Positions 5,810 to 56,700 of a stretch of DNA of 64,000 bases are shown here, one piece after another. Numbering within the stretch: position 1 is the first letter of the stretch; every line of letters starts with the position of its first letter. The notes beneath the pieces were generated by a model. The model was not told the origin of the DNA, made no database searches, and saw only the letters and a program-made list of their open reading frames with translations. This stretch comes from Candidatus Odyssella sp. (lineage in GTDB: Bacteria > Pseudomonadota > Alphaproteobacteria > Paracaedibacterales > CAITNM01). A program made the translations under genes and the position numbers. The stretch covers positions 66,526 to 130,525 of the forward strand of contig DYTB01000001.1 in assembly GCA_020726185.1 (NCBI GenBank), written 5' to 3'.

Positions 5810-6259
5810 TTATATTCCTTTTTCCCAAGCACCCTTTAGGGTCTGCTTCCATAGTACAATTTCATTGCCTGATTCTTGATATTTTTCCATTCGTTCTTTT
5901 GCGCTTTGAACGCTTGGTAAATCATTTCCATCATAAATATCTAAGATGCGTTCATAAGATTTATCTGTAGCATATTCTTGAGTAGTGATCACTAAAACTG
6001 TTGCATTAATGGGGTTATCACTACTAGTGGTTAGCCAAATGGGTTGGTGCACATGAAACTGTGCTGGGTCAGCATTTGAACCGTGGGGTAAAAACCCAAG
6101 AGTGGTATAAGTCCACATAGCGCTATCAATTGATTTCAAACGCTCTGAACTTTCTATACGAATAACGGCCTTAAGCCCGCCTTCGTAAACCTTCTCAAGA
6201 ATTTTAGGTAAGGTCTTTTCTAAGGAAGTAACCATAAGTTCATAAAAAGTTACTTGCAC
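5810..6259 (-). CDS. holC: DNA polymerase III chi subunit
   Basis: The 149-aa ORF reads MQVTFYEL...LPKILEKVYEGGLKAVI...LDSAMWTY...FLPHG, which matches the HolC pattern (FY, LW, FLPH). Confidence 0.75.
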   Translation of the reverse strand: MQVTFYELMVTSLEKTLPKILEKVYEGGLKAVIRIESSERLKSIDSAMWTYTTLGFLPHGSNADPAQFHVHQPIWLTTSSDNPINATVLVITTQEYATDKSYERILDIYDGNDLPSVQSAKERMEKYQESGNEIVLWKQTLKGAWEKGI

Positions 6260-6968: not shown

Positions 6969-7466
6969 ATGATTATGCAAAAAACAACAACGACGCTACC
7001 AGAAATAAAATTAGTTGGAATTACAACCAGAACGAGTCTGGCATCAGAAATGAATTTAGCAACGGCTAAAATTGGTGTTACGGTTCAAAAATATTTTCAT
7101 GGCGGCTTATCTGAAAAAATTAATACCCGCAAAAAAGCGGGCGTTACCTATTGCGTATATACAGATTATGAAAGTGATTTTACAGGGGATTATACATACT
7201 TCATTGGTGAGGAAGTTGATTCACTTGATGGTTTGCCGGAAGGTTTTGAAAAACTTGTTATACAAACTCAAAATTATGCGAAGTTTACAACGGAGTCTGG
7301 TCCTATGCCTGCAGTGTGTATTGGAGCTTGGCAAAAAATATGGACGATGACATCAGCTGAATTTGGTAATGAGCGTGCGTACATTGCTGATTTTGAAGTC
7401 TATGATGAGCGTGCGCTTGATCACCAAAATGTTATTTTGGATATTTATGTTGGGTTGCGTGCGTGA
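6969..7466 (+). CDS. GyrI-like small-molecule-binding domain protein (AraC effector-binding-domain family)
   Basis: The 165-aa ORF has a GyrI-like pattern (IKLVGITTRTS...YCVYTDYESDFTGDYTYFIG...FEVYDER). It is the first gene of a tightly packed plus-strand operon. Confidence 0.6.
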   Translation: MIMQKTTTTLPEIKLVGITTRTSLASEMNLATAKIGVTVQKYFHGGLSEKINTRKKAGVTYCVYTDYESDFTGDYTYFIGEEVDSLDGLPEGFEKLVIQTQNYAKFTTESGPMPAVCIGAWQKIWTMTSAEFGNERAYIADFEVYDERALDHQNVILDIYVGLRA

Positions 7467-8299
7467 ACATTGAAACGATAGAAAAAAATGCCTTCGGTCA
7501 TTTTGCCTATTTGCCAAAAATGCTTGGTTTTGATGTTAAGGAGAACAAGCAGTTGACCACGATTGATTGCGGCTTGGGTTCTTCAATGTTTAATATTGTG
7601 TGTGGTACGCACTTGGAAAAATGGGCAAAAAATCAACGAGATGTCTACTGCTTTGAAAATAGAATTTATCAAGGTGAATGCGCTTACTATGGTGAAGAAT
7701 TCATTGAGGAAAAAATTCATGAAGTTATAACCAGTTTTAAAAAACAGCCATTTTCTTGGTGGGTTGGTTATTCATGTGATCCTGAATGGTTGGGTAATAT
7801 TTTGCATGAAATGCATTTTAAAAAATCAACCACAGAGCACGCTATGATGTGTGATCTTGAACAATTTGGTGCTCTTGAAAATAATGGGGCAATTACTATT
7901 GATCAAGTTGAAACGGCAACACAGCTGGAGCATTTTATTCAAGTGTTGGAAAAGTATGATGCATCAGCACGAATTTTTTACGAGAAGTTAACCAAGCATT
8001 TGAGGTATTCAAATGAAAAATTGTTTGTTGCTTATGAAAATGGTGCACCTGTTGTTATTGCTAGTTTGTATATTGATTATGAAAGTGATAGCGCAGGAAT
8101 TTTTAATTTGATAACAGCCGAAAATAAAAGAGGGCTTGGGTACGGCACAAAAATGATGAATCATTTGATGTGGCATGCAAAAAAAATGAATATGAAATAC
8201 GTAACGCTTTTGGCTTCTAGTGATTCGGGATATCGAATTTATGAGCGTCTTGGTTTTAAAGCGCTAGGGCAATTTGAGTGCTATGAATGGGAAAATTGA
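7463..8299 (+). CDS. GNAT-family N-acetyltransferase
   Basis: The C-terminal acetyl-CoA-binding motif reads NKRGLGYGTKMMNHLMWHAKKMNMKYVTLLASSDSGYRIYERLGF. The GTGA start overlaps the upstream stop. Confidence 0.75.
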   Translation: MNIETIEKNAFGHFAYLPKMLGFDVKENKQLTTIDCGLGSSMFNIVCGTHLEKWAKNQRDVYCFENRIYQGECAYYGEEFIEEKIHEVITSFKKQPFSWWVGYSCDPEWLGNILHEMHFKKSTTEHAMMCDLEQFGALENNGAITIDQVETATQLEHFIQVLEKYDASARIFYEKLTKHLRYSNEKLFVAYENGAPVVIASLYIDYESDSAGIFNLITAENKRGLGYGTKMMNHLMWHAKKMNMKYVTLLASSDSGYRIYERLGFKALGQFECYEWEN

Positions 8300-18455: not shown

Positions 18456-18532
18456 GTTCCCGTAGCTCAGCAGGATAGAGCGCAAGATTCCTAATCTTGA
18501 GGCCATGAGTTCGAATCTCGTCGGGAACGCCA
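18456..18532 (+). tRNA. tRNA-Arg, anticodon CCT, with CCA encoded
   Basis: A manual cloverleaf fold works. The acceptor is GTTCCCG/CGGGAAC, the D arm is GCTC/GAGC, and the anticodon stem is CAAGA/TCTTG with loop TTCCTAA. The T arm is ATGAG-TTCGAAT-CTCGT, the discriminator is G and CCA follows, for 77 nt in total. Confidence 0.9.
18487..18532 (+). repeat. attL core (46-bp direct repeat, the tRNA-Arg 3-prime portion)
   Basis: It is identical to 32485-32530. Confidence 0.85.
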
Positions 18533-18575: not shown

Positions 18576-18598
18576 TTCGGGGTTACGCCGGGGTTACA
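18576..18598 (+). promoter_or_regulatory. Tandem GGGGTTAC motif, a candidate integrase arm-type site (P-prime arm)
   Basis: TTCGGGGTTACGCCGGGGTTACA lies 43 bp after attL. A near-identical copy, TTCGGGGTTACACCGGGGTTACA, is at 32343-32365. Confidence 0.4.
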
Positions 18599-18681
18599 TT
18601 TTGAAGTAAATTAAGTCTCACTTTTTTGTAAACATTAAGTGTACATAAACTGTGTCTTTAATTTTTTTCACTTTCTCTGTG

Positions 18682-18887
18682 AAAAGGATTTGAAAAAACA
18701 CAACTTGAAGAAATATGGAAACGCTACAATACAAATATTTTTTCTGAGGCTCCGTAAAAAGGTCATTTTTGCCGTCCAGCCGTCCACCCCATATGAAAAC
18801 TGCGGCTTTCAGTCTTTTTTATCCGTCCACCTATCCGTCCACTCGGACACTTATCCGTCCAGCCGTCCAGTAAATATCAAAAATTGC
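18682..18887 (+). repeat. Island repeat family, copy A, left part (CCGTCCA heptamer array)
   Basis: It aligns nearly base-for-base with the reverse complement of 30835-31029. It contains six direct CCGTCCA units, and one inverted TGGACGG lies just beyond at 18892-18898. Confidence 0.8.
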
Positions 18888-18957
18888 GAAAGTGGACGGC
18901 AAATATCGAGGGATTAAAATATATTGAGAAAGAAATTCAGTTTGAGCATGTGAAAAT

Positions 18958-19260
18958 TTAAAGACCGTTAAATGCTCTACCACCATTAGCCCACATCCAG
19001 GCTGATAGACTAATGTGGTAATCATAGAGATGTTCTGGTGGCTCCTTGCCATTACTGGCTGCTAGAGATTTTGCAATGCGAATTTGTGATGGCTTGGCTG
19101 GTCTGCCATAACGCTCGGGGATTTTAATTGGTTTGCTTGGCCTACACTCTTTAGCAATATTTTTGATGAAATATTCGTGTTCTTGGGATACCCAAACTCT
19201 TACTTGTACGAATCCTTCTTCTTGTTTTTTCATCCGATAATTTTGCATTCTTGCTGTCAT
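18958..19260 (-). CDS. Small basic protein, possibly an RHH/DUF3018-like regulator or antitoxin
   Basis: The 100-aa ORF from the ATG at 19260 reads MTARMQNYRMKKQEEGFVQVRVWVSQEHEYF. The N-terminus recalls the DUF3018 pattern (R..G.R.V..WVP). Only this repeat copy retains the full ORF; copies B and C keep just MTARM(Q/K)R-stop. Confidence 0.35.
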   Translation of the reverse strand: MTARMQNYRMKKQEEGFVQVRVWVSQEHEYFIKNIAKECRPSKPIKIPERYGRPAKPSQIRIAKSLAASNGKEPPEHLYDYHISLSAWMWANGGRAFNGL

Positions 19261-19370
19261 AAATGAACGCCGTAGGCAATTTAGTGATGTAAAAAGTGTA
19301 GCGCACTTTATCACGACGCGTAAGTGCGCATTTAGCAAAATATGCTTAATGACACTTGATAAGACCTAAT
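19245..19370 (+). repeat. Island repeat family, copy A, right part (5-prime region of the small ORF with a conserved palindrome)
   Basis: It matches 19668-19797 and the reverse complement of 30685-30815. It contains GCGCAC-N17-GTGCGC at 19301-19329. Confidence 0.75.
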
Positions 19371-19527
19371 AGTGAGTATTAATTTTAATTTAGCAAACAC
19401 ATGTTGATGAGAGAGAAGTTTTTTATCTATTAATAAGCTGACAATAACTATTTAGGTAATTGGAATTCGGAATGATGTCAAAAGCAATTATGAGTATTCT
19501 TAAAATCTTTTGCTTAATCTTCAAAAA

Positions 19528-19800
19528 CATTTTTTCTGAGACCACTCAAAAAGGTTCTTTTTGCCGTCCAGCCGTCCACCCCATAGGAAAACTGCGGTTT
19601 TCAGCCTTTTTTATCCGTCCACCTATCCGTCCAGCCGTCCAGTAAAAACCAAAAATTGCTATCTTTGCATTCTTGCTGTCATGAATGAACGCCGTAGGCA
19701 ACATAGTGGTGTAAAAAGTGTAGCGCACTTTGTCCTTCGCATCAGTGCGCATTTAGCAAAATATGCAAAATGATACTTGATGTGATTTTGTGATTCTACA
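19528..19800 (+). repeat. Island repeat family, copy B (deletion derivative, same orientation as A)
   Basis: It aligns with the reverse complement of 30682-30975. It lacks the 357-bp segment that carries the small ORF in copy A and lacks one 21-bp unit of the heptamer array. Confidence 0.8.
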
Positions 19801-19955
19801 ATTTTAATGCAAAATTGTGCTCGGGGAATGGCATGAGAAAAAGGACATATAATTACTTAAAATTTTATATTTATTTCTTTTTTGTTGCTTAATGGTGTGT
19901 AATTGACTATTTTATTTAAATAATTCTGGTTTGAGTCTTTAGTATAAAAAAGTCA

Positions 19956-20426
19956 TTGAATATTATAGAAAACATAGAAGTCAATCGCTTTATAAACGAC
20001 ATCAAGTTGTCTGGTGTAGAGTACTTCTCCTTAGGCATTATTAAGGAAGATCAGATTTTTGCAATTTTTTCTTCTCCTACATGGCAAAAGTTCTATTTAG
20101 AAAATCAGTGTTTTGATTATGATCCTGTCATCAAAACGGCCTATGTAAATTATGATATGCCTGTTGATTGGCGTTCTGTGACAGTGCTTTTAAAAAAAGA
20201 GGCCTTCATCATGGAGGCACGAAGTGAGCTTACCGGTTGCCAAGAAGGTTTTAGCATGATCAAAAAAATCGATAGGGAAACCAGCGCAATTCTTGCATTT
20301 GGTGGGACAAAAGATTTTTCCACCGTGATGAATGCTTATGCAACCTATCAATCTGAAGTGACAAGACTCGCAGAGCTTTTGAGCTCTATCTACTTTCCCC
20401 CAAAGAAAAAGAAAAAAGAGAAGTAG
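19956..20426 (+). CDS. LuxR-type autoinducer-binding-domain-like protein without a DNA-binding HTH
   Basis: The 156-aa ORF (TTG start) reads SSPTWQKFYLENQCFDYDPVIKTA...PVDWRS...EARSELTGCQEGFSM...AILAFGG. This follows the Autoind_bind pattern (W..Y....y..DP.....p..W....a...G...G.s). It ends in a lysine tail and no HTH follows. Confidence 0.45.
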   Translation: MNIIENIEVNRFINDIKLSGVEYFSLGIIKEDQIFAIFSSPTWQKFYLENQCFDYDPVIKTAYVNYDMPVDWRSVTVLLKKEAFIMEARSELTGCQEGFSMIKKIDRETSAILAFGGTKDFSTVMNAYATYQSEVTRLAELLSSIYFPPKKKKKEK

Positions 20427-20495
20427 AGATAAAGGCAGACTAGAGATAGAGGGCTTTACGCGCCATGGAATTTTGATGCGCCTGTTAATTCTTTA

Positions 20496-21146
20496 TCATA
20501 AATGGAGTATTGATTGCATTCTTAACCAAAATATCGGGGCTGCCTTGGTGATTTTTACATTGATCTCCATATAAGCTGATCCTTCATGTTTGACGTTCGT
20601 ACCGTACAAAAACCATTCACCATTACAATAGCCAATTCTGCGTACCCGTATTTTTCCATCAGCGGTTTGCACAATGCAGGGAGAATCTAAGCACTTCTTT
20701 AAATCAGCTAGGTCTACAAGCTCACCACCAACAAAGTCTCCATGAACATAAAACGGTGCCATCGAATCATCATTGACCATTAAAGTCATCCCGTTAGGAT
20801 AAGACTCCTTAAAATAACTCAAATCCCTTAAGGCATTGATGGTTTTACTAGAGGTTGGACCTTTTGATTTGATGAACTTCGAGGGGAGAATAGTGCTAGG
20901 CGGTGATCCCTCTCCTTTTAGTAGCCATTCAGCACTGCACTCGATTGAATGGGCAAGGGCTGCAGTGATTAAGCGTTGAATATTTTGAGTTTTGATATTA
21001 TTAAAACCGCCTTCCCATTTTTCTAGGGAAACGGCTTTGATGTCATGGCGTTTTTCCATTGTTTGTCGATCAAGTCCCATTAGACCGCGCAAATAGCGAA
21101 TTCTATTGCCAATGATGCTTAAATCACTCGTATTTTTTTTACCCAA
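20496..21146 (-). CDS. CI/LexA-like repressor (XRE-type HTH plus S24 peptidase domain)
   Basis: The N-terminal HTH region reads IGNRIRYLRGLMGLDRQTMEKRHDIKAVSLEKWEGG. The C-terminal S24-like region reads VNDDSMAPFYVHGDFVGG. It is divergent from the toxin gene. Confidence 0.75.
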   Translation of the reverse strand: MGKKNTSDLSIIGNRIRYLRGLMGLDRQTMEKRHDIKAVSLEKWEGGFNNIKTQNIQRLITAALAHSIECSAEWLLKGEGSPPSTILPSKFIKSKGPTSSKTINALRDLSYFKESYPNGMTLMVNDDSMAPFYVHGDFVGGELVDLADLKKCLDSPCIVQTADGKIRVRRIGYCNGEWFLYGTNVKHEGSAYMEINVKITKAAPIFWLRMQSILHL

Positions 21147-21310
21147 CGGCTAACTCATGCTTCTTTTCTTCATAAAATACTCGATCTCGTTAAAAAGTCA
21201 AACCATATGAGCCGTTCAGCTGATCTTTGTGCTGATTCAAGTGATGCTTTTTCGTATACCTTTACCATTAAATTATCTCTTTCTTAAAATATATATCTAT
21301 AAAAAATATG

Positions 21311-21338
21311 TTTACACAGAAAAATATTAAGCTATAGT
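21311..21338 (+). promoter_or_regulatory. Candidate sigma70 promoter for the toxin operon
   Basis: TTTACA (21311-21316), a 16-nt spacer, then TATAGT (21333-21338), about 80 nt upstream of the RBS GAAGGAG and the ATG at 21416. Confidence 0.35.
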
Positions 21339-21415
21339 AACTTCACGAATTAGGGCGTATAGGTAAGGTGAAAAATCTTGCCAACAGTTTCAACAATGGA
21401 TGAAGGAGAACAAGT

Positions 21416-24400
21416 ATGTTTAAACGTTTAAGATCGCAAATTTTAAGAATTCTACCCACGATAATCATTTTAAGCTCCTTCGTTCATGGTGCTTATGATC
21501 CGAACGATCCACGTCATCAGCTCGTGAATAAAATCAAAGAGCAATATGCGACTGAAATCACTGCTCGTCAGGCTTTATTAGGAACCCATTACAATGTGGT
21601 GGCATTGGTTGATATTGCGCGTGAATGGTTGGAATTAGAAAGATTTACTCCATCTGATCCAAATTGAGGCTTAGTCATTCGTTATGCTTTATCGGGATAT
21701 GGATATAGTAAAGGCGTTGATACAACATTAAGAACAAGTGATGCTGAAATTAGCTCCCTTAAAGTTGGGCATGCATTAAGCAGCGCTTACTTACGTGCTC
21801 AAGGAGGTGCAGATCTGGTTGAAATTTCAAAAATGCATGCAGTGATGGCAGTATCAGCAATGGCATCTTTGGTTGATGTGACAGCTTGCATTACAGATGC
21901 TGTTCCTGTCCCATCTTTGATGTTGTCAAGCATTGCAGACTACGCGAGTATTCTGAATCGTGTTGCAGCCTCTATTCCTGCGGAAGTTCATGCTTTTGCT
22001 GAAATAGCTGTGGATCGTCTGCGCGGTTTAAGCCACCTTAATAAATTCAATGCATGGTTTGCCCATGAACGGTTTTGGGCAGCAGGTGGTGTTATTGATC
22101 CGCATACCTATGAACAACAAAGAACATCTCGTGCCGGATTTGCAGGAACACCGATAGCATTTTTGAATGATTTATCTACAAAGCTAGATACAGCAATGCG
22201 GTCGATGGATGCTGTGCCAACTCCCCAAAGTGTTGAGGATTTAGTTAGACAGTCACAACAGATTCTATTGACTATTGCCGCTGGAACACCAGGTGAAGAT
22301 GGTATTCCTATTCGTCTTAATCCTGCTAATGCTGCGGATTGGCAAATTATTCGCAAAGCACTATTCTTGGCCTTAAGCGTGACCAGTGATCCAATTAATG
22401 GTGGTGATACGTTTTTGAGTACATTGTTTGATTGTGCAAAGTTTTATCTAGAAAAGACTGAATCCGATGCAATTAAGGGCTATTATTGGAAAGCACAAGC
22501 ATTAGCTAAGAACTTTTCAAGTATTTGGAAGGGCCTATTATCAGGTCAGGCAGATGCTGAGCTTAATGCAGGATTAACACAGGTTATTGCGATTGCAGAT
22601 CCTTTGGTTTATAACGCTGCATGGACCTCGGAGCGTGGATCTAGTTATCCCGCTTTAAAAAGTGCTTATGAACAAGCAAAGACAATGATTTCTATTGCAG
22701 GGGTTCGCGGTGAACTAGCAACAGCTTTGTCATTACACCCAAAATTAAATCATCTGCAGACTTTTAAAGCTCTTTACCCTGATCTAATGATCTGGACTGA
22801 ATATCACATTCCTAGCCAGCAAGCTATTGATCTTGTGGATACCATCAGAACAACGATTACTCATCCGGTAGGGTTTGAACCGGAACGCGTGCACTTAAAA
22901 TATGAAGCAGGAAAATGGTCTCTTAGGGGTATTAAGTCTGCAGCATTAGGCAATGCAGAACATATTTTGTGGCGACAAGGTGCTAGTGCAGAGGAAGAAT
23001 TCATTGGTGCTTTAGAAGATGGCCGAGGAACGCATTTGTTTAGTTTCAAGGTCAATGGAGCTTCTGCAGTCATTAAGGCAATTAGCAGTGGTTATATTGT
23101 GAATCTTGGCGGAAATAATGCAAGCATTGGGGTTGCTCATGGTGCTGAACTGGGAATTGTAGAATCATCTGCTTATCCTGTGCAACTAATTGATGACCCA
23201 AGTGATGATAAAGAAAACGCTGTTTTAACTATTAAAGGAGCTGCCTATTCAGGTGAGCGTGGGGTTTTAATGGCAAGGCGCGGCAGTGTGTGGAACAGTG
23301 CTTCTTCCACTAATTTGAGCTATACAATCGCCCCTGAAATAAAACAACACAATGGAAAGAATTATAACTTCTTTGCACAAAAAGGTCATGGCATTATGGC
23401 GCATAAAGACATTGTGCTTGAAGGACAAAAGATCAATGCGTCACGAGGCATTTTAAACGCAGGAAGCAGGAAAAAGCATACATTTTGAAATGGATCGGGT
23501 TGCTGGTAAGGGCCAATTTAAAACCCATGGCAGTCTGATTCAAGCAGGAGATGAAATTATTCTAACTGGACAAGATTGGGAAGGTAATACAGAGGGTGTA
23601 TTTGCTGGATCGGCTGGTAATGTGTGTGACGTGCAGATCCCAGCAGATCTTGTGCCCAACAGCCCTCAAGCGTTACTAGATTATGGTCGTGCTTTAAGAT
23701 ACAGCTTAGGTCGTATTGAGTTTTCTAGTGAAGAAGAGAGAACAACCTTAGCACGTGGGCCCCATGCATATGGATCATATCAAAGCTTTTCATCATCGGC
23801 CCCTCGATGGAAGCCTGTTTATATATTAGTTGAGGCTGCTTATAAAAATGATGGATATGGAAGCGGTGGTTACGGAGGTGGTTTCGGAGGATTTGGAAAC
23901 TATGGAGGTGGCGGTGGTTTTGGACACACTGTTGGAAGTAGTTCATGGGCTCCACCAAGTAGCTCATTCCGTCAAGCAACAGTTGCACGACAAGAAAAGT
24001 TTATTCAACAATGCAGAGGCGGCGGTAGCGCAGCAGGTATGCCACCAGCTCCAGGAAGCTTTGGTACTATGTTTCAACAAGGTGGCTCTATAGCAGGTGG
24101 AGGCCCCAGCTCTATAGCTGGCCTAGCAGCAACCATGATTCCAGCTGGTGTTACAGAACAGAGTGTTGTTTTTGGAGGAGACAGCCGTGGTGGAGACATG
24201 ACAGCATTTGCATCTCTTTCCTTGTGCTCACAGACAGACAGCTGGACTGCAAGGGCAAGCTATACTTCAGGTCTTAGCGGTAAAAGTGTAGGATTAGAAT
24301 CAGCCTATTCAGGATCTGGTGATCGTGCAAGTGTATTGCGCGATATTCACGCCTTAACAGCTGCGAGCATTATGCAGTTGACTGATCGTCGTACAGATAG

Positions 24401-24896
24401 ATTGTCTGTTGCACCGTTGGTTTTGGGTGGATTAGCGATAGGACGCGTTGCGATTCCTCATGTAGTGAGATGGTCAAGGACTATTGTAAACGCTTATTTA
24501 TTGGCGGAGCAGGTTAGAGAACAAGCAGAAGAAGCCGCGAAAAAAGTTGCCGATGAATCATCATCTGCTGCAACCGGTGGACCAAAGGGGCAATTGCCTG
24601 ATGGCGAAGATCCTGAGAAAAAAGAAACAAAGGTTGAGCAAGGAAAAAGTCAGGCACCAAAAGTAGGGACGCCAGATTCTATCTATGAGCAGATTGGTGA
24701 TGATGGTAGTGTAAACTCAAGAACATATTATGATGAAAACGGTAGGCAATTTTCTAGGCAGGATTATGGCCATACTCATGGTGGGCAAGAAGGCCCGCAC
24801 CAACATGAAAGAACGTTTGATGCCCAAGGTTTGCCACTAACTGGGAAAGTTGTGAAACCTCTGCCTTCTGGGTACCCTAACACATCAAGTTTGTGA
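21416..24896 (+). pseudogene. Large secreted polymorphic-toxin-like protein (~1160 codons) broken by an in-frame TGA and a +1 frameshift
   Basis: ORF 21416-21667 (signal peptide) and ORF 21833-23488 share a frame, and the frame is open from 21668, so TGA at 21665-21667 is the only interruption. ORF 23490-24896 is open from 23457 in the +1 frame, and the junction is at the A5 run 23471-23475. A Gly-rich tract (GYGSGGYGGGFGGFGNYGGGGGFG) is followed by a hydrophobic helix and a Lys/Glu linker. The last ~70 aa carry RTYYDENGRQFSRQDYGHTHGGQEGPHQHE. Confidence 0.6.
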
Positions 24897-24903
24897 GGTA
24901 AGT

Positions 24904-25440
24904 ATGAGTAGTTTTTTAGTTGGAATTATTGAACAGAATGTGAGCAGAACAACTGATGATGGAAAGCACTCTAGAGCATTTGATAGTTGCTTGTATAAGA
25001 TGCAAAAAATAGGCATTGATCAAGGATTATCAATTTTAATAGGGTGGAATATTCAGCCATATGCTTTTAATGAAATCAAAGATTTTATTCCTGCTCACCT
25101 ACAGGATAAGTCTAATACGGCTAGATTTATGATTGCTAGGTCTCCTGAGGATAACTTTAGCGACGAACTGTTTAATGATTGGGAATATGAATCCTGTCGA
25201 GAGGGGTATGTGCCGGGGCAAGCAAAAGTGTTTAAAGAATTAGAAAGCTTTATCGCTCAAGTTTTTGCTTTAAATGAAGTAAAAAGCTTATGGCTTAGAT
25301 ATCAGTGTATGTCTGCGTGTGAGGTTAACAAGCTTGCAACCATTGCTGACTTAGAAGGGCAAATTTATAAGCAATGTTCCAACGGTGAGCTGTTCGAAGT
25401 TTCAGACTTTGAAATTAGCTTGAAGAAAGAAGAAAAATAA
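24904..25440 (+). CDS. Putative cognate immunity protein (hypothetical, acidic, cytoplasmic)
   Basis: The 178-aa ORF starts 8 nt after the toxin stop. It has no signal peptide, and the immunity call rests on position only. Confidence 0.4.
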   Translation: MSSFLVGIIEQNVSRTTDDGKHSRAFDSCLYKMQKIGIDQGLSILIGWNIQPYAFNEIKDFIPAHLQDKSNTARFMIARSPEDNFSDELFNDWEYESCREGYVPGQAKVFKELESFIAQVFALNEVKSLWLRYQCMSACEVNKLATIADLEGQIYKQCSNGELFEVSDFEISLKKEEK

Positions 25441-25454
25441 TGGGGAATTGATAA

Positions 25455-25535
25455 CAAATTTTGTTACGATTTCTTCTGCTTGGGTGGCTGTTCTTATGCC
25501 ACCCCTTTACGATGCAGCAACAGGAAAGGTGATTT
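25455..25535 (+). repeat. Inter-cassette spacer repeat, copy 1 (stem-loop GGGTGGC/GCCACCC at 25482-25504 plus the RBS for the next gene)
   Basis: It shares CAAATTT...GCTTGGGTGGCT...CACCC...ATGCAGCA..GGAA.GGTGATT with 25849-25916. Confidence 0.6.
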
Positions 25536-25838
25536 ATGAAAACAATATATCCTGATGTTTTTGAAAAGGTATTATTTATTTGTGACCAATATATAGCAAA
25601 TGAGTGTACGCCTAAAAAGGTTCAAGAGATTACTGGATGGGCTGAGAGTTTTATTCAGAATTTTGAAGAAAAAGATTTAAGGAAATTCTTTACGGTCATT
25701 GAAAGTGATATTGATTTTGTCAGGGTTATGGCAAATGAGGCAGACTTTGAATATAGGGGGATTCCTGAAAGAGAAAACAGAGAAGAAATGTTGAAGATAA
25801 TTCATAGGATCAAAACTGAATTGATTAATCATCAGTAA
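25536..25838 (+). CDS. Hypothetical small helical protein, possibly an orphan immunity cassette
   Basis: The 100-aa ORF is preceded by RBS AGGAAAGG within the spacer repeat and followed by a second copy of the spacer repeat. Confidence 0.35.
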   Translation: MKTIYPDVFEKVLFICDQYIANECTPKKVQEITGWAESFIQNFEEKDLRKFFTVIESDIDFVRVMANEADFEYRGIPERENREEMLKIIHRIKTELINHQ

Positions 25839-25848
25839 GATTACATAC

Positions 25849-25916
25849 CAAATTTCTAACAGTGCTTGGGTGGCTTTAAGTCACCCGTTTTATGATGCAG
25901 CAGGAACGGTGATTCA
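25849..25916 (+). repeat. Inter-cassette spacer repeat, copy 2 (stem-loop 25868-25886; the downstream start codon is lost)
   Basis: CCAAATTTCTAACAGTGCTTGGGTGGCTTTAAGTCACCCGTTTTATGATGCAGCAGGAACGGTGATTCAC. Where copy 1 has TTATG, this copy has TCACTGA. Confidence 0.6.
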
Positions 25917-26137
25917 CTGATAAATTTTTTAATTTTGATTTAGATTGTCGGGTGCATTAAAAATATCCAATTACAAATTAGTGATAGAAATAGAGGAACT
26001 TTTAATTGTCGCTGATCATCATGAAATCAGATAAGCTTGAAAATAATAAAAATTAGATAATTTTAAAATACCTGGTAAAGATTAATGCAAGAAATAAAAA
26101 AAGAATTAAACCTTCCAACAGCAAATCGGACTGAATC

Positions 26138-28744
26138 ATGAAATTTTGGGTCTTTCTGTTAGGATCATTTTTATGTGCATCTTATGCAGCTGAAAAAGCC
26201 CCTGAATTTCTGATAGAAGCTGCTCCTTCTTTTGTTGAGTCAATAAACGAAGAAGAATTTTTTAGCATTTCGGACCAAGAAAGTGCAAGTGGCGTTCATT
26301 AACAACTTCTTGATTCCCAAATAAAAAAAGAAACCGATAGGATTGATTACTTTACGCACATTTCTAAAAAGGTCATCAATCAAAACGGCATTGATAACGC
26401 AGCTATTATCGAAATTGAATTTGATCCTATAGGTGATTCACTTGTACTTCACCACGTAAACGTAAAACGCGGGAAGACAATTATTAACCATCTGAAAACT
26501 GCAAAAATTAAAGTGCTTCAGCGCGAAAAATCTTTAGAGAGAAAGCATTATACAGGCGCCAAATCTATTAACATTATCTTAGATGACATCAGAGTCGGAG
26601 ATATCATCGACTATTGCTTCACTATAAAAAGCAAAAACATTAATGATAATAAGAACTTTCATACCAGAATTTACCTTTCCAACGCTGTTCCAATTCATTT
26701 TTTAAGTAAACGTATTTTGTGGCCTCAAAGCCTGCCTCCGCTTGTTGTTAAAAATCATACGACTGATCTTCAACCCATCACAAGGAAACGCGAAAAATAT
26801 ACTGAATATTTATGGCAAAAAAAAGAAGTCCCTGTTGATCAATACGAACCTTATACTCCTATTTGGCATGATGTTGTGCCTTGGATTGAAATAAGCGCTA
26901 ACCTTAATTGGCGGGATATTAATCTTGCTCTGTCTGAGCACTATAAAGTCCAGGCTTTACCACCTTCCATAAAAAAACATGTTGATCGTATCATCAGTGC
27001 AGAAAAAGACTTAGGCAAACGTTTCATTACTGCAATACGCTTCATCCAAGATGAAATTAGATACATGGGAATGTCAGACCGTATTGATGGATATAAGCCC
27101 CTAAATGCAGAGCTAACTTATGAAAGACGTTTTGGTGATTGTAAAGACAAAACGTACCTTGCTTTGACTATGCTTAAAGCTTTGGGAATAGAAGCTTATC
27201 CAGCTGTTGTGCACACAATGTTTGGAAAACTTCTTGATTCACGCTTAGCAAATCCTGCAATTTTTAATCATATTATTGTTGTTGCCATTATTAATGGTAA
27301 AAAGTATTGGATTGATCCAACGTGTTCTTTGCAAGGAGGAACATTAAAAAATTACGTTCAGCCCGACTATGGCTACGCACTTATTCTGGATGGAAAATCG
27401 CAAAGCCTCATCAAAATGCCTTCTCTTGAGCTAACAGAGCCTTCCATTGAATTTTATGAGAAATTTGACCTTTCAAAAGGACCTGGAAACCCAAATTATC
27501 TATCGATAAAGACCGTGTATAAAAATATGCATGCAGATAGCCAACGTGGATATTTTCATATAACACCAAAAAAAGAGATGAACGAATCTTATGTTAATGG
27601 AATGAAAATAAATTACCCCCTTATTCGACAAAAAAGTGAACTTATTGTTTTAGATGACCGAGAAAAAAATGTCATAATTGTCGCAGAAGACTATGAAATA
27701 CCTGACCTGTGGAAAAGAAGGGAAGCTAAAAAACTCTGGATTATGTATACGTATGTTGATGAGTTTATAACTTATCTAAATAATAAAAATATTTTTGCTG
27801 ATAGAAAGACCCCTGTATCCCATATTTCCCCCAGATATATTACCAAGAAAATAGAGATGATTCTTCCTGACAAATGGGATTTCAAAACTGAATCAATAGC
27901 TGTAACTGATCCCACTTTTGAGTTTAAAAAAGAAACGCAGTTGCAAGATCTAAACTATTCGATTTCTTATGTTTATAGAAGCCTTAGTGATCATGTAGAA
28001 CACAAAATGATTGCTTCTTACATTAAAAACGCTGATCAAGCCTATGCTCTTTTAAAAAGTAATCTATGTCAATTTGATCCATCTCCCCCTGATAAGATGT
28101 CTGAAAAAAAAGAACCACCTAAAAAGAAAGATTCCCTAAATTGGCCAATCTTTTTACTGCTTGTTATTGCTCTTATATTTTTCATTTTTTTAGCCAAGAA
28201 AATTTATGTTTCTAAACCTAAAGTGCTTTTGGAAAAAGATGAAGGTTCAAAATTTTATGGCATTGAAGGTTGGCCGTTGTTGTCAGGTTTTTATATTCTT
28301 TTCAGAATCATTATTTATTTTGGGGCCTTTTATTCTATAGCAAGCGAGGTATTATCCCATGACACGTGGATTAGGGTCTCAACCTCAACCTCCGATACAT
28401 TCAAACCATTTTTTCTTCCTTTGGCATTTAAAGTAGCGTTTACGTCTCTTTTACTTACTGCATTGTGGGGGCTGGCAGCAATGCTTTTTTTGAAGAAGAA
28501 ACATCTATTTCCACATGTGTTTGTTTTTGCGTTGTTTGGGGATTTTTTATTTATAATATCCGATCAGATATTGTCTTATTTTTTCCTTTCTTCTGTTTCA
28601 ACAAAGACAGATATTATGGGCACCATAGTCTTTGGATTGGTTGTATTGATCTGGGGTGTATATATGGCAAAATCAAAAAGAATCAAAGTGACCTTTGGAC
28701 AAAATTACTCATTTAATTTCAAAAAAAATAACAATACACTCTAA
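26138..28744 (+). pseudogene. DUF3857-like N-terminal domain plus transglutaminase-like cysteine protease core plus C-terminal polytopic membrane domain, with one in-frame TAA
   Basis: The ATG at 26138 gives a signal peptide (MKFWVFLLGSFLCASYAAE) in the same frame as ORF 26513-28744. The only interruption is TAA at 26300-26302 (SASGVH*QLLDSQ). The transglutaminase core reads RRFGDCKDKTYLALTMLKALGIEAYPAVV. The C-terminal ~200 aa contain at least 5 TM helices. Confidence 0.65.
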
Positions 28745-28767
28745 TTAAAAAAGAAAGCGAAGTTCAA

Positions 28768-29286
28768 ATGCAAAAAAATCCGCTACAAAACAGCTCTGAT
28801 GAACTGGCAACAATAAAATTTTTCAGTTTTGAATTAGAAGCTATTAGCTTAAAACAAATATTAGATTTTTATGCTTGGTTTTTGATTGCTGAAATAATTA
28901 TTATGCTTGCAATAGCATTGCTTTTTGACAGGTTTAATGTTGGTGGAATTTATGGGGGTTTATATCTGTGTGGAGTCATAGGAACTTTGGGTTTTTGTAT
29001 TTATAGATACAGGTATTCACCGTACATGCATGGCCTTATAATTATTGCTTATGGCTATTCGTTTGGAGAAAAAATTAACTATTTAAAAAAATTCAAAACG
29101 GATTCATACTTAATTGAAAAGTTTAAAAATATTATATTTAACGAAGGAACCTTTGCTTCAATACATGATTTTTTTGCAGAAAGCTTATGCGAAAATATTT
29201 CTTATTATTTTAACGGCTTTTTTATGAGTTTGATTTTTTTCTATTTTGCATATTCCTATAAGAAATTGAATAAGCGCACTAACTAG
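28768..29286 (+). CDS. Hypothetical membrane protein
   Basis: The 172-aa ORF has about 4 hydrophobic helices and is followed by spacer repeat copy 3. Confidence 0.4.
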   Translation: MQKNPLQNSSDELATIKFFSFELEAISLKQILDFYAWFLIAEIIIMLAIALLFDRFNVGGIYGGLYLCGVIGTLGFCIYRYRYSPYMHGLIIIAYGYSFGEKINYLKKFKTDSYLIEKFKNIIFNEGTFASIHDFFAESLCENISYYFNGFFMSLIFFYFAYSYKKLNKRTN

Positions 29287-29292
29287 AATGAC

Positions 29293-29340
29293 TAAATTTC
29301 TAACAGTACTCGGGTGGCTTTTAAGTCACTTGTTTCTGTT
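29293..29340 (+). repeat. Inter-cassette spacer repeat, copy 3 (degenerate)
   Basis: TAAATTTCTAACAGTACTCGGGTGGCTTTTAAGTCACTTGTTT matches the left two-thirds of copy 2. Confidence 0.55.
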
Positions 29341-29419
29341 TTGTCAATACATGCGATGGCATTGTTTATAAAAACGCGGTACAATCAATTATAAAAACGC
29401 GGGTTAAATATTTATAAAA

Positions 29420-30661
29420 ATGGCGAGATCCTTAAATTCTATATATGCACGCATTCAAAAAGATTGCGTTGATTTAGCCTTGCAAACAAGTCGTGTTATT
29501 CATTTGTCTGGCCCTCGACAATGTGGGAAAACAACGTTAGCAAAAATGATGGTGTCTGAAGATTGTGATTATCGTACGCTAGATGATGAAACGTATTTAC
29601 AATCAGCGCTTATCGACCCAAATGGATTTGTTAGGCATGACAAAAAACATTTAATCATCGACGAAATTCAACGAGCTCCTAATCTTTTAATGGCAATTAA
29701 AAAGGTTGTAGATACTGACAACAGGCCAGGACAGTATATTTTAACTGGGTCATCTAACATTCAAGCATTACCAGGCGTTAACGAATCATTGGCAGGACGC
29801 ATCCGCAAAATTCGCTTGAGGACGCTAACAGAAGGAGAGATATTAGGGAATGCTGCTTCATTTTTAGAGAGAGCTTTTTCTCAGGTTTTTAAGGAAAAAA
29901 GTGATTTAAATCGTGATTCAATATTAGAAATTGGCTTTCGAGGGGGATTTCCTGAAGCCGTACGATTACCACCTAAAATTCGCTCTATATGGCATAAGGA
30001 ATATATGAATGCTCTTTTAGAGAGGGATTTAAAGGATATTGTTAAAATCCAACGACATGAAACAATGCATGATCTCATAAGGGTTATGGCTGGTTGGTCA
30101 TCAAAATTTATGGATATATCAGCAATTGGATCAAACTTAGGGGTAACCCGACCTACTCTTGAAACATACATCAATGCTTTAGAAGCAATGTATATTGTTG
30201 AGCGTGTTCGTCCATGGTCGCGAACTGACTATGATCGCGTAAGTAAACACAGTAAGGTTTTTATGACAGACACGGGGCTTATGGCTTCATTGTTGGGGTG
30301 GGACATAGATCAAGTGCGATTTGATTCGGATCGCTGCGGTAAGTTAATGGAAACCCTAGTATTTCATAGTTTATCTACTTTAATTGATGCAGATTTTGGA
30401 AAATATACACTCTATCATTATCGAGATCGAGAAAAACGAGAGATTGATTTTCTCATTGAGCGTGAGGACGGATCGATGCTCGCAATAGAGGTTAAAGCGG
30501 GGTCATCGGTTGGAAAGAGCGATTTTAAACACTTGGACTGGTTTAAACAAAATATGGCTAAGGAAAAGCCATTTATTGGGATAGTTGTGTATACCGGAGA
30601 AGCAGCAGTTCCCTTTGGAGATGGTTTTTGGGCAGTGCCAATGAGTGATATGTGGAAGTAA
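29420..30661 (+). CDS. AAA-type ATPase with a DUF4143-like C-terminal domain
   Basis: Walker A is LSGPRQCGKTTLAK and Walker B is LIIDEIQRAPNL. The C-terminal region (EIDFLIE...AIEVKAG) is a restriction-endonuclease-like pattern typical of AAA_14/DUF4143 proteins. Confidence 0.7.
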   Translation: MARSLNSIYARIQKDCVDLALQTSRVIHLSGPRQCGKTTLAKMMVSEDCDYRTLDDETYLQSALIDPNGFVRHDKKHLIIDEIQRAPNLLMAIKKVVDTDNRPGQYILTGSSNIQALPGVNESLAGRIRKIRLRTLTEGEILGNAASFLERAFSQVFKEKSDLNRDSILEIGFRGGFPEAVRLPPKIRSIWHKEYMNALLERDLKDIVKIQRHETMHDLIRVMAGWSSKFMDISAIGSNLGVTRPTLETYINALEAMYIVERVRPWSRTDYDRVSKHSKVFMTDTGLMASLLGWDIDQVRFDSDRCGKLMETLVFHSLSTLIDADFGKYTLYHYRDREKREIDFLIEREDGSMLAIEVKAGSSVGKSDFKHLDWFKQNMAKEKPFIGIVVYTGEAAVPFGDGFWAVPMSDMWK

Positions 30662-30681
30662 TTAAATTTTGTGTGTGAGAA

Positions 30682-31029
30682 TGTCAGAATCATAAAATCA
30701 GATCAAGTATCATTTTGCATATTTTGCTAAATGCGCACTGATGCGGAGGACAAAGTGCGCTACACTTTTTACACCGCTATGTTGCCTACGGCGTTCATTC
30801 ATGACAGCAAGAATGAAAAGATAGCAATTTGTTGATATTTACTGGACGGCTGGACGGATAAGTGTCCAAGTGGACGGATAGGTGGACGGATAAAAAAGGC
30901 TGAAAGTCGCAGTTTTCCTATATGGTGGACGGCTGGACGGCAAAAATGACCTTTTTAAGGGGCCTCAGAAAAAATATTTGTATTGTACCTTTTCCATATT
31001 TCTTCAAGTTGCTGTTTTTCAAATCCCTT
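30682..31029 (-). repeat. Island repeat family, copy C (contiguous form, inverted relative to A and B)
   Basis: Its reverse complement aligns with 18682-18887 plus 19245-19370 (copy A) and with 19528-19800 (copy B). It carries a stub ORF (MTARMKR-stop) and GCGCAC-N16-GTGCGC at 30733-30760. Confidence 0.8.
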
Positions 31030-31119
31030 TGGTTGGATGTCACCGATTTCTATATTTTTCGTGAGGATTTAGTAAGGGGTAAGAAGTCTACTTAGCTGAC
31101 GTGGTGGCCCTACTTTTGT

Positions 31120-32316
31120 TTAAATGAGACCACGTTCTGCAGATTTCTTTAATCCTGCCGCTACTAACATGGCGCCAGTTGCCCTATCAACAGATTCTCG
31201 CACCGGGTCTAAATCTAATCGTGCATAAATTGCGGTTGTACTTGGTGATTTATGATTCAACGACTTGCCAACTATCACCAATGATGCGCCTGTTTTTGCT
31301 TGCCAGCTACCAAGAGTACGCCGTAGATCATGAATTCGTAGGTTGGCAATCCCAGCCCGCTCTAATACACGTTTCCAGGATTTTTTAGGTTCAACAAGGT
31401 GGCCAGTAACACCAGTCCCTGGAAATACCCATGTCGTGTTAGTGCCTTGTCGTGCTCGTAAAATCTCAACAACTTCATGAGTTAGGGTAACTGTTTGAGA
31501 GTCCCCGTTTTTAGTAATAGGTATACGCCATTCTCCACGCTCTAGATGTATCTGTGACCATTGCATTTCTTGGACATTAGAACGCCTGGCACCAGTCAGT
31601 AAGGAAATAAGAAAATAGTCTCTCAACGTATCGTTTTGTTCTTCTGCTAGTGATTTGAAAAATGCAGGTAATTCATCGGACTGTAAAAAACGATCACGAG
31701 TATTTTCATAGAATTTTTTAATGCCTTGAGCCGGGTTAGTGCCTTTAAACAATTTTTTCTCAGTAGCATACCCAAACAAGCTAGATGCTAGGGCGATAAT
31801 CCGATTAGCCGTAGTTGGGTATTCTTTGCCTATCTCAGTATGTAGCTTACCAAAATCATTGTCTTTAAATTGGGATAACTGCCGCTTACTCCATTTGGCT
31901 AGGTACAAGTTAAAATTATATCGGTAGGTGCTTTTTGTGCTCGCTGATAAATATGCACCCTTTCGGTTACGACGATGTTTAAGGAACTCTTCAAACAATT
32001 CTTCCAATGTTGTTTCTGTTTTTAGTGCGCGAGCGTCAGAGTTTGGATTGATACCATCAACAATAAGTGCATTTATACGTGCTGCCTCATTACGTGCCTG
32101 CTCAATAGACATATCGGGGTAACGTCCCATGGTTACACGTTCAGGGTTTCCATTTTTGATGCGTCGATAAACGCAAAATGTTTTAACACCAGTACTCGTG
32201 ATGCGTATCTGTAGGCCATTGGTCTTTTTATCGTGATAAGCTTGGCGTTGACCACTGGCGGGTAAAGGCAGAGCATCTAAAGTTGCTTTGGTAAAGTTGA
32301 TTTTATTCTCTGACAT
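31120..32316 (-). CDS. int: Tyrosine-type integrase, P4-like, with a DUF4102-type arm-binding N-terminus
   Basis: The N-terminus reads TKATLDALPLPASGQRQAYHDKKTNGLQIRITSTGVKTFCVYRR...GRYPDMSIEQAR. The catalytic region contains ARRSNV, HDLRRTLGS and AIYARL. Confidence 0.9.
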   Translation of the reverse strand: MSENKINFTKATLDALPLPASGQRQAYHDKKTNGLQIRITSTGVKTFCVYRRIKNGNPERVTMGRYPDMSIEQARNEAARINALIVDGINPNSDARALKTETTLEELFEEFLKHRRNRKGAYLSASTKSTYRYNFNLYLAKWSKRQLSQFKDNDFGKLHTEIGKEYPTTANRIIALASSLFGYATEKKLFKGTNPAQGIKKFYENTRDRFLQSDELPAFFKSLAEEQNDTLRDYFLISLLTGARRSNVQEMQWSQIHLERGEWRIPITKNGDSQTVTLTHEVVEILRARQGTNTTWVFPGTGVTGHLVEPKKSWKRVLERAGIANLRIHDLRRTLGSWQAKTGASLVIVGKSLNHKSPSTTAIYARLDLDPVRESVDRATGAMLVAAGLKKSAERGLI

Positions 32317-32342: not shown

Positions 32343-32365
32343 TTCGGGGTTACACCGGGGTTACA
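32343..32365 (+). promoter_or_regulatory. Tandem GGGGTTAC motif, a candidate integrase arm-type site (P arm)
   Basis: TTCGGGGTTACACCGGGGTTACA lies 27 bp upstream of the int start and 119 bp before attR. Confidence 0.4.
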
Positions 32366-32484: not shown

Positions 32485-32530
32485 ATTCCTAATCTTGAGG
32501 CCATGAGTTCGAATCTCGTCGGGAACGCCA
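32485..32530 (+). repeat. attR core (orphan copy of the tRNA-Arg 3-prime 46 bp)
   Basis: It is identical to 18487-18532. The upstream sequence cannot form the D arm or the 5-prime acceptor, so this is not a second tRNA gene. Confidence 0.85.
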
Positions 32531-56011: not shown

Positions 56012-56254
56012 CTACTTTTCTCCAACGCGAATTTTCTGTGGAAGCTTTATAGCCTCGCTAAGTGCTTCCACATTTTCGCTAGCGGCTTTATTTTCCTGTT
56101 TTATACGTTCATATAATTCTTGGCGTAGAACAGATGAAGTGCTGGGGTATTCGAACCCAAGTTTTACAATGCGTCCATTTATTTCTAGGACTGTGCATAC
56201 AATATCATCATTAATAATAATGGATTCGCCAACTTTGCGACTGAGACTCAGCAT
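56012..56254 (-). CDS. csrA: Carbon storage regulator / translational repressor CsrA
   Basis: [51 protein letters not shown] matches the CsrA consensus (MLiLtRkvGEsi.Igd.I.itvl...g..VrlGi.AP....v.R.Ely..i). Confidence 0.85.
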
Positions 56255-56333
56255 ACCTACTCATTCTTATAAATTTAATTAAATGTTAAACAATTTTTTT
56301 ATTATACATAGTAGGAATTTGAAGATTTTTTGT

Positions 56334-56700
56334 ATGAGTCTGTTTGACGATAAGCTCTCATTACTGCTTAACCACCGGCTTACTTGGCTGGGTGCTAGGT
56401 CAAACGTTATTGCACAGAACATTGCTCATGCTGACATTAAGAAAGCTCCGCACAAGGAAATGCGTTCTTTTGGGCAGGTTTTGAAACGTCATGGAGCAAT
56501 CCCAACCAAAAATGGTCAACAGGTAAGAATATTAAGACTTGGAGACAGTGACATTGTTTATAATAAAAAAAAGCGATTAATAGAGAGTCGGAAATGCTAG
56601 AAATGTCAAAAAATGTGCTTGAGCATGATGCAATTTTAAGTACGGTTAAAAACTTTCATCAACTGGTGAAAACAATTCTAAGCATGTCACAAGGAGGATA
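56334..56700 (+). pseudogene. flgB: Flagellar basal-body rod protein FlgB with a frameshift in an A8 tract
   Basis: The N-terminal part reads MSLFDDKLSLLLNHRLTWLGARSNVIAQNIAHADIKK (FlgB pattern R..vIa.NiAnadT). This frame stops at 56598-56600. The +1 frame continues as AINRESEMLEMSKNVLEHDAILSTVKNFHQLVKTIL, ends at 56700 and carries the RBS for flgC. The frames meet at the A8 run 56565-56572. Confidence 0.75.

Follow-up and report, generated by a model that had tools for sequence, protein, structure and literature searches.

Heptamer arrays in an integrative island of Candidatus Odyssella

The window analyzed in this study, a stretch of 64,000 nucleotides from Candidatus Odyssella sp. (contig DYTB01000001.1, positions 66,526 to 130,525), includes an integrative island of about 14 kb, which lies between a tRNA-Arg gene and a duplicate of its 3' end and carries dense arrays of the heptamer CCGTCCA. 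A total of 20 exact copies of CCGTCCA were detected on both strands of this 64-kb window, against 2.27 expected (standard deviation 1.44; maximum 6 in 100 shuffles), and 18 of these 20 copies fall inside three arrays, A, B and C (Table 1). All three arrays are adjoined, on the outer flank of the repeated module to which they belong, by the 3' stub of a gene for a primase-helicase (rep), and in related elements with intact rep an array of the same kind is located at the 3' end of this gene. We propose that the arrays are probably the replication-origin iterons of an integrative element of the P4 or phage-inducible chromosomal island (PICI) type, orphaned by deletion of the primase-helicase gene.

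The units are mostly aligned as doublets with a period of 8 nt (CCGTCCAGCCGTCCA) or 12 nt (ATCCGTCCACCTATCCGTCCA), and a partial palindrome, GTCCA-NN-TGGAC, is present in arrays A and C. On the TGGACGG strand, arrays A, B and C contain nine, seven and nine GGA triplets, respectively. The density of the arrays, the doublets, the partially inverted unit and the nine GGA triplets of copy C had been pointed out in the original prediction, which was made from the sequence of the window, and all of these were confirmed.

The arrays are parts of a module of about 350 bp, of which three copies exist in the island. Modules A and C form inverted repeats of 202 nt with 93% identity. Besides the array, the module includes a small gene for a protein of 100 amino acids (aa) and, as its inner region, the conserved upstream region of this 100-aa gene. 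The gene is intact in copy A, while copies B and C keep its first 7 codons, MTARM(Q/K)R*, in agreement with the small open reading frame (ORF) stub with a start codon that had been noted earlier. The 202-nt inverted repeats were also considered as the ends of a transposon or a miniature inverted-repeat transposable element. This reading was rejected: the "terminal" part is a coding stub of rep, no transposase was found with Pfam, and the module is collinear with intact elements.

Table 1. Features of the island and its heptamer modules. Positions are those of the window; aa, amino acids.
Feature	Position	Strand	Remarks
tRNA-Arg(CCT)	18456..18532	+	ARAGORN and Rfam
attL core	18500-18532	+	last 33 nt of tRNA-Arg; recurs at 32498-32530
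GGGGTTAC doublet	18579..18597	+	11-bp period; 47 nt from attL core; outside the heptamer arrays
Module A	split: array part 18682-18899, inner part 19242-19360	-	intact small gene in between
rep 3' stub, copy A	18683..18757	+	last ~24 codons and stop; rep encodes a Toprim+DUF3631 primase-helicase
Array A	18758..18957	+	region between rep stop and 100-aa gene; most complete origin-like copy
Array A units	18772-18869; 18893-18899		six direct CCGTCCA; one distal inverted TGGACGG
100-aa gene	18958..19260	-	convergent with rep; intact only in copy A
Inner region, copy A	19261..19365	-	conserved upstream region of 100-aa gene
Module B	19525..19814	-	short rep-end remnant, array B, 7-codon stub of 100-aa gene (19682-19659), inner region (19664-19814)
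Array B	19564-19641		five units
Module C	30669-31030	+	
Inner region and stub, copy C	30669..30824	+	with 7-codon stub of 100-aa gene (30801-30824)
Array C	30838..30945	-	six CCGTCCA units, 30843-30940; distal inverted units lost
rep 3' stub, copy C	30955..31104	-	pseudogene; last ~50 codons, in-frame stop
P4-type tyrosine integrase	31120..32316	-	Arm-DNA-bind_3 and Phage_integrase (Pfam); right island end
Second GGGGTTAC doublet	32346..32364	+	30 nt upstream of int start codon; ~135 nt from attR core
attR core	32498..32530	+	duplicate of the 3' 33 nt of tRNA-Arg; right end of the ~14-kb island

Location of the array at the 3' end of rep in intact relatives

For comparison, metagenome contigs were scanned with the pattern of the inner region, and ten loci were obtained. 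A contig scan with TGGACGGNTGGACGGN{5,35}TGGACGG gave, among the matches listed, mostly unrelated GC-rich tandem repeats, and L022, L072 and L102 were the only true relatives among these listed matches (blastn). Among viral contigs, the array pattern hit 11 unrelated loci, and neither the inner-region pattern nor the Rep protein gave any hit. No plasmid match was found in PLSDB by blastn with module C as a query.

Intact elements were identified among the related loci. The locus L143 (the same as L140) carries a 760-aa Toprim+DUF3631 gene with a Walker A/B P-loop, followed by the array, a convergent small gene and the inner region, and the array begins at most 14 nt past the rep stop codon. 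The arrangement in L145 is the same. In L152 and L153, of which the Rep protein is 85% identical to that of L143, the order is int, three small ORFs, rep, array, 100-aa gene (minus strand), inner region, second array, inner region and a 156-aa Autoind_bind gene. L152 and L153 are collinear with window positions 18681-21389 (93.4%), and their sequence from the rep stop to the 100-aa gene is almost identical to the array A region. The second array is located about 800 bp from the first, as array B is from array A. This collinearity with rep-bearing loci shows that arrays A and B belong natively to such an element.

The Toprim+DUF3631 initiator family gave 1930 hits in the homologue search, and the closest named genomes are Candidatus Finniella and an unclassified alphaproteobacterial metagenome-assembled genome (MAG). 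The operon of Rep homologues consists of an integrase, an AlpA/HTH_17 protein, an ORF of about 100 aa and rep, an order typical of P4/PICI-like islands. Upstream of the AlpA/HTH_17-rep operon, clusters of the hexamer ACCCAT/ATGGGT, six each and in both orientations, were observed in L143 (1984-2094) and L148 (4258-4406). These clusters may represent operators of a shared regulator, and the elements that carry them differ in the iteron unit.

In all eight rep-bearing loci (8/8), about 3-55 nt separate the last Rep residue that is conserved from the beginning of the array. The rep ORF reads through the array as a low-complexity C-terminal tail in L145 (7097-7328), L148 (7226-7487) and L149 (5839-6106), and therefore the putative origin is formally located inside the gene and the Rep lengths in databases are inflated.

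Co-variation of the repeat unit with the Rep protein

The sequence of the unit differs between the elements in parallel with the Rep protein. At 72-85% Rep identity (L145, L152 and L153), the units in the rep 3' flank are CCGTCCA. The spacers of L143 are divergent (overall identity 72%), but its units persist as TGGACGG, TGGACGA or TGGACAG. At about 60% (L146 and L147), degenerate units CCGTCCG, CGGTCCG and CAGTCCA were found together with the distal inverted doublet TGGACGGTCGGACGG. At 50% (L148), the array at 7253-7431 combines seven CCGCTAC units in direct orientation with three inverted ones (GTAGCGG), and its periods of 8 and 12 bp are those of the window. At 40% (L149), a CGCCACA doublet is opposed by an inverted TGTGGCG doublet 110 bp away (5863-5990), and at 36% (L150) GCGTTAC units are located opposite GTAAC(A/G)C units. 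The four units CCGTCCA, CCGCTAC, CGCCACA and GCGTTAC are thus paired with Reps of 85-36% identity.

In the distant homologues a common layout is found at the rep 3' end: doublets with 8-bp spacing face each other in inverted orientation over 100-200 bp, and direct units lie between them. At least two opposed units per side are present in L143, L145, L148 and L149, and they are degenerate in L146/L147 and L150. One inverted unit is set against six direct units in L152/L153 and in array A of the window, and arrays B and C have none. An unbiased search for a short-period doublet with its reverse-complement doublet within 300 bp, applied to the loci of about 10 kb, detected exactly one inverted doublet pair each in L143, L145, L148 and L149, in every case at the rep 3' end, while only 1 of 200 shuffled sequences contained any such pair. 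A conserved architecture in which the unit follows the protein is what would be expected of iterons specific to their initiator.

A non-repeat element, G(G)AAAACTGCGG, was also observed in the arrays, at 18797-18807 (GAAAACTGCGG, array A), 19589-19599 and 30908-30918 of the window, at 7305-7316 of L145 and at 7399-7410 of L148; it is not found in the array of L143. Its presence in both CCGTCCA and CCGCTAC arrays suggests an origin site that is independent of the unit, for instance one for a host factor or for loading.

The Rep protein was modeled with AlphaFold (P0001, pLDDT 83), and the model consists of a Toprim N-terminus, a P-loop core and a C-terminal domain. The C-terminal domain (about residues 640-730) is predicted to be winged-helix-like, with helices followed by a β-hairpin wing. 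By profile search the N-terminus matches the primase domain of T7 gp4, and no match to PDB was detected at the sequence level beyond this primase domain. Foldseek comparison of the model with PDB gave replicative initiator helicases, among them MCM, the NrS-1 helicase, PriRep1 of Staphylococcus aureus pathogenicity islands (SaPI) on double-stranded DNA (7pds), poxvirus D5/E5 and the Rep of adeno-associated virus. The predicted recognition helix and wing are near-identical among the elements with CCGTCCA and different in L148, L149 and L150.

Loss of rep from the window island

The stubs next to the arrays were identified by tblastn with the L143 Rep. Positions 18683-18748 correspond to its last 22 aa (73% identity), and positions 31104-30964 (minus strand) correspond to its last 47 aa (77% identity, E 2e-16). 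Between the stubs of copies A and C there are synonymous differences, AGG/CGC (Arg), GCC/GCT (Ala) and CCT/CCG (Pro), which were taken as a sign of past evolution as a coding sequence. The collinearity with the intact locus L153 starts at 18681, so that the breakpoint is about 25 codons short of the rep stop, and the window island has lost the segment from int to rep at its left end. Array C is located beside the integrase gene with the second, longer rep stub. Deletion has removed rep and its upstream operon from the window and left only stubs of 24 to about 50 codons beside the arrays. With rep deleted, the three arrays, two at the left and one inverted at the right beside int, would therefore be orphan origins.

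Proposed function and comparison with known systems

In the intact relatives, an initiator of about 740-760 aa is encoded directly upstream of the array. Its C-terminal domain would recognize the CCGTCCA units, and Rep would assemble on the two oppositely oriented sets of units, melt the DNA and prime replication of the excised element. The orphan arrays of the window would then act only with Rep supplied in trans from a related element, or as sites of titration or handcuffing.

Such an organization is close to that of known satellites. SaPI origins contain 6-12 short iterons directly downstream of rep, at least two per side in opposite directions, which are read by a winged helix in the C-terminal domain of Rep (PMC9371898), and the origins of Gram-negative PICIs contain two iteron sets next to pri-rep (PMC6092414). 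The elements described here share with them the short-repeat array directly 3' of rep, with opposed units on two sides in L143, L145, L148 and L149, an initiator that combines a self-loading helicase with a fused or neighbouring primase and ends in a winged helix (here predicted), and, in the relatives, the integrase-bearing island with an operon of AlpA/HTH_17, small ORF and rep; PriRep1 (7pds) is among the best structural matches of the Rep model. In contrast to the SaPI and PICI systems, Rep is here of the Toprim+DUF3631 type without a sequence-level PDB match beyond the primase domain, a second array is located about 0.8 kb away in the intact elements, and in the window rep is deleted and three arrays are left.

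P4 alpha protein binds octameric "type I iterons" (TGTTCACC) in two clusters, ori and crr, which are kilobases apart. Alpha is composed of primase, helicase and a C-terminal winged-helix DNA-binding domain (PMC2777425). The same combination is found or predicted in the initiator described here, and further common features are the P4-type integrase, sited at a tRNA gene, and the small AlpA/Vis-like helix-turn-helix (HTH) protein. The differences from P4 are in the helicase, which is DUF3631 here and of the D5_N/P4 alpha type there, with no sequence homology to alpha demonstrated, in the sequence and spacing of the unit, and in the genes for capsid size and helper exploitation (sid, psu and delta), which were not seen here. 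Iteron plasmids also carry auxiliary iteron clusters, such as P1 incA and F incC, for titration or handcuffing. They resemble the window in having extra arrays of initiator repeats outside the functional origin and several clusters per replicon, but these clusters share the replicon with rep, whereas in the window the initiator gene is missing and a control function is conjecture. The feature is of a known kind, and the Rep family, the heptamer code and the multi-copy state without rep are new instances of it.

Several points weigh against this assignment. SaPI and PICI origins are described with an AT-rich region for melting between their two sets of iterons. A central AT peak, as a clear region of this type would give, is not present in the arrays (0.45-0.65 in a 20-nt sliding profile), and the AT-rich stretch (0.70-0.80) is distal to the array, in the array A region toward the 100-aa gene. 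The units are heptamers with 8- and 12-bp periods, while those of SaPI are penta- or hexanucleotides. The co-variation of unit and Rep is confounded with phylogeny and includes about four independent unit classes. The 13 copies aligned for the conservation analysis below are related and not independent samples, so their comparison does not amount to a formal test of selection. The 100-aa protein, encoded nearly always near CCGTCCA arrays, may be the binder or a co-binder. Finally, by tblastn only stubs of rep were detected in the island and in the rest of the window, and since rep is absent the arrays cannot fire alone.

As an alternative to its preferred reading, the original prediction had considered iterons or other protein sites for an island-encoded regulator, the CI-like repressor or the integrase. 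As to the kind of site, this agrees with the position, the architecture and the co-variation of unit and protein. The binders it proposed are unsupported, because the arrays travel with rep and not with the integrase or the repressor.

Conservation of the heptamers

The conservation of the arrays was examined with an alignment of 13 distinct but related copies, mostly without rep, from the window and the related loci. Variable columns were 1 of 42 within the heptamers and 19 of 56 within the spacers (Fisher p 8e-5), and substituted cells were 1 of 539 and 50 of 715, respectively, a strong contrast for neighbouring positions of one and the same molecule. The units of one related copy, L138, are visibly decaying. 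Modules without rep were found in at least three species-level genomes, those of the window organism, the MAG ELA364 and a Candidatus Finniella MAG.

Alternative explanations

Two other proteins could be considered as the binder of the heptamers. Operator, centromere-like or copy-control sites of the 100-aa protein would resemble the arrays of the omega repressor of pSM19035 or of ParR-parC, in which a small ribbon-helix-helix protein binds cooperatively to dense units of 7-11 bp, direct and inverted. A small conserved protein is indeed encoded beside the array: the 100-aa gene abuts it in L143, L145, L152/L153 and copy A of the window, the proteins of the window and L143/L140 are 100% identical, and the gene remains intact in an island that has no rep and of which the heptamers stay conserved. 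The protein sequence has a strand-like segment, VQVRVWV, followed by helices, and its N-terminus may be ribbon-helix-helix-like. However, L148, L149, L150 and L151 share the array architecture at the rep 3' end without a 100-aa homologue in the locus, the gene is 2.8 kb away behind a cargo gene in L147, and only a fragment of it exists in L146. The array is located downstream of this gene, 3' of two convergent genes and not on a promoter, its units are not contiguous as in omega and ParR arrays, and no partition NTPase is present for a centromere. Neither a Pfam nor an NCBIfam match was obtained for the 100-aa protein, and no DNA-binding fold was recovered: its AlphaFold2 model (pLDDT 81) is helical with the VQVRVWV segment unpaired, and as a monomer gave no fold match in PDB. 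We consider binding by the 100-aa protein, in place of Rep, to be improbable. Far less credible are arm-type sites of the P4-type integrase or of an excisionase, shaping the attL and attR intasomes, even though the integrase has an Arm-DNA-bind_3 domain, the arrays are near both island ends in inverted orientation and array A is 240-370 bp from the attL core. Array C is about 1.55 kb from the attR core with int in between, in L148 and L149 a distance of 3-4 kb separates int from the arrays, which are placed at the 3' end of rep, and the heptamer module occurs with att sites and integrases of both the tRNA-Arg and the tRNA-Lys type, the latter in ELA364. The role of arm sites is better fitted by the GGGGTTAC doublets, which flank the core on both sides and account for all four copies of GGGGTTAC in the window (0.61 expected); their counterpart in L152, just upstream of its int, is a different doublet, GGTAGCACCAG x2, and thus varies with the integrase. 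The GGGGTTAC doublets are probably arm-type or autoregulatory sites of the integrase.

The arrays might also have no function of their own as DNA sites. As inert scars of former iterons, they would be similar to each other by recent common descent or gene conversion. Rep is absent, neither the distal inverted units nor the 100-aa gene are preserved in copies B and C, decayed units are seen in L138, and all copies are about 90% identical, so the time elapsed is short. Nevertheless, the heptamer columns are far better conserved than the spacers, GC-rich units are kept in a genome of about 38% GC, where mutation bias would be expected to erode them, and rep-less modules persist in several species, so that we give this explanation a slim chance. 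The preferred reading of the original prediction was a CsrA-sequestering RNA of the CsrB/RsmY/RsmZ type, rich in GGA and transcribed from a promoter in the inner region. The nine GGA triplets within about 110-130 nt in arrays A and C, the conserved upstream region pointing into arrays B and C, and the ORF at 56012-56254 (minus strand), which reads as CsrA-like as had been noted, are in agreement with it, but every test of it came out against it. Rfam gave no match to the arrays, either at the gathering threshold or at a permissive one with E up to 10, and returned two tRNAs only, and consensus scans detected neither a sigma-70-like promoter nor an intrinsic terminator bracketing the arrays. 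The folding check proposed at that time gave z-scores of -1.5 and +0.3 against shuffles, no better than expected, and in the minimum free energy structures the GGA triplets were not consistently unpaired (fully unpaired in 0/9 for C, 1/10 for A and 5/7 for B). The ANGGA context is present for only 2-3 GGA per array. Moreover, the conserved unit is 7 nt and is used in both orientations, homologous arrays consist of the GGA-free units CCGCTAC, CGCCACA and GCGTTAC, and the array is inside the extended rep ORF in L145, L148 and L149. An RNA sponge was consequently judged next to impossible, and iterons for the Rep C-terminal domain remain the reading that we prefer.

Other features of the island and its relatives

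The 100-aa family contains 49 homologues. Their N-termini follow the pattern MT.RMQ.YR, from which the true start of the window gene is 19260 (MTARMQNYR...). The residues R21, W23, C39, P75, H77, L78, Y79, H82 and W88 are among the invariant ones in this family. The protein may be a dimer similar to the ribbon-helix-helix type.

Within the inner region, a palindrome, GCGCACT-N13/14-AGTGCGC, is located at 19317-19345, 19738-19766 and 30717-30745, followed by TACACTTTTTACA, and its arms are invariant while the spacer is variable across copies. No consensus promoter was called in this palindrome region. The inverted repeat may be an operator or a hairpin. Two other assignments were dropped: an oriT, suggested by a likeness of the palindrome AAGTGCGC to the nic region of RSF1010, since no relaxase is present and the palindrome is upstream of the 100-aa gene, and a DnaA box, since TTATCCGTCCAC does not match TTATCCACA.

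The cargo of the island, as classified by Pfam, includes an Autoind_bind-only protein, an HTH/CI-like repressor, a 468-aa protein with an Ntox24 C-terminus, a transglutaminase/DUF3857/DUF2569 protein and a DUF4143 ATPase, and by these domains looks like a set of toxin, defence and regulator genes. Adjacent ORFs of 551 and 468 aa, followed by one of 178 aa, are located at 21833-25440. The 468-aa protein has a Gly-rich middle and its match to the Ntox24 toxin C-terminus is weak, and the three ORFs resemble a polymorphic toxin locus that includes a candidate immunity gene. In the rest of the window, a divergent ORF of 105 aa (56283-56600) is located next to the CsrA-like ORF.

Cargo was repeatedly found as an insertion that separates the origin array from the 100-aa gene, or that is flanked by duplicate copies of this gene, for instance at 7422-7724 and 9652-9942 of L145, 7314-10039 of L147 and 19525-30945 of the window. 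The inserted genes include PLDc_2 and a Sel1-repeat protein, AbiE (L143) and HipBA (L102, L146 and L147). The junction between array and 100-aa gene looks like a hotspot for cargo in such elements.

For the MAG ELA364, one and the same junction of module and P'arm was observed on L072 (1-2000) and L022 (1-1040). A partial tRNA-Lys(CTT) is located next to a split integrase pseudogene at the L072 junction, a full tRNA-Lys is present at the L022 junction, and the two contigs carry opposite ends of the cargo (the 156-aa side and the 172-aa side). Tandem elements, inversion of the cargo between inverted modules or an assembly artefact could each give this pattern.

Possible role of the orphan arrays

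The intact locus L143 is from the metagenome Ga0247837, as are L137 and L141, which carry the ends of the window island, and supply of Rep in trans is therefore conceivable. That the orphan copies are still active at present, by replication in trans or by titration of Rep, is possible but rather doubtful. More specifically, rep-less islands, with two or three arrays maintained by selection, might be replicated in trans by the Rep of a related intact element in the same cell, as a satellite of a satellite, or the arrays might serve as decoys and titrate or handcuff this Rep when elements compete; we regard this as an unlikely though conceivable state. If it is true, the inverted arrays around the toxin and defence cargo would define a block that is amplified or inverted as a unit.

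The origin interpretation explains a striking repeat without a new RNA or a new regulator, and removes the false lead to a CsrA sponge. For the large, uncharacterised Toprim+DUF3631 family, which occurs in P4/PICI-like islands of poorly studied Proteobacteria, it provides a candidate origin, together with a candidate code in which the heptamer unit is matched to the winged helix of Rep. Islands without a replicase can apparently retain multiple copies of the origin in which the binding units seem to be under purifying selection. Such retention hints at replication in trans, or at titration of Rep, among related mobile elements.

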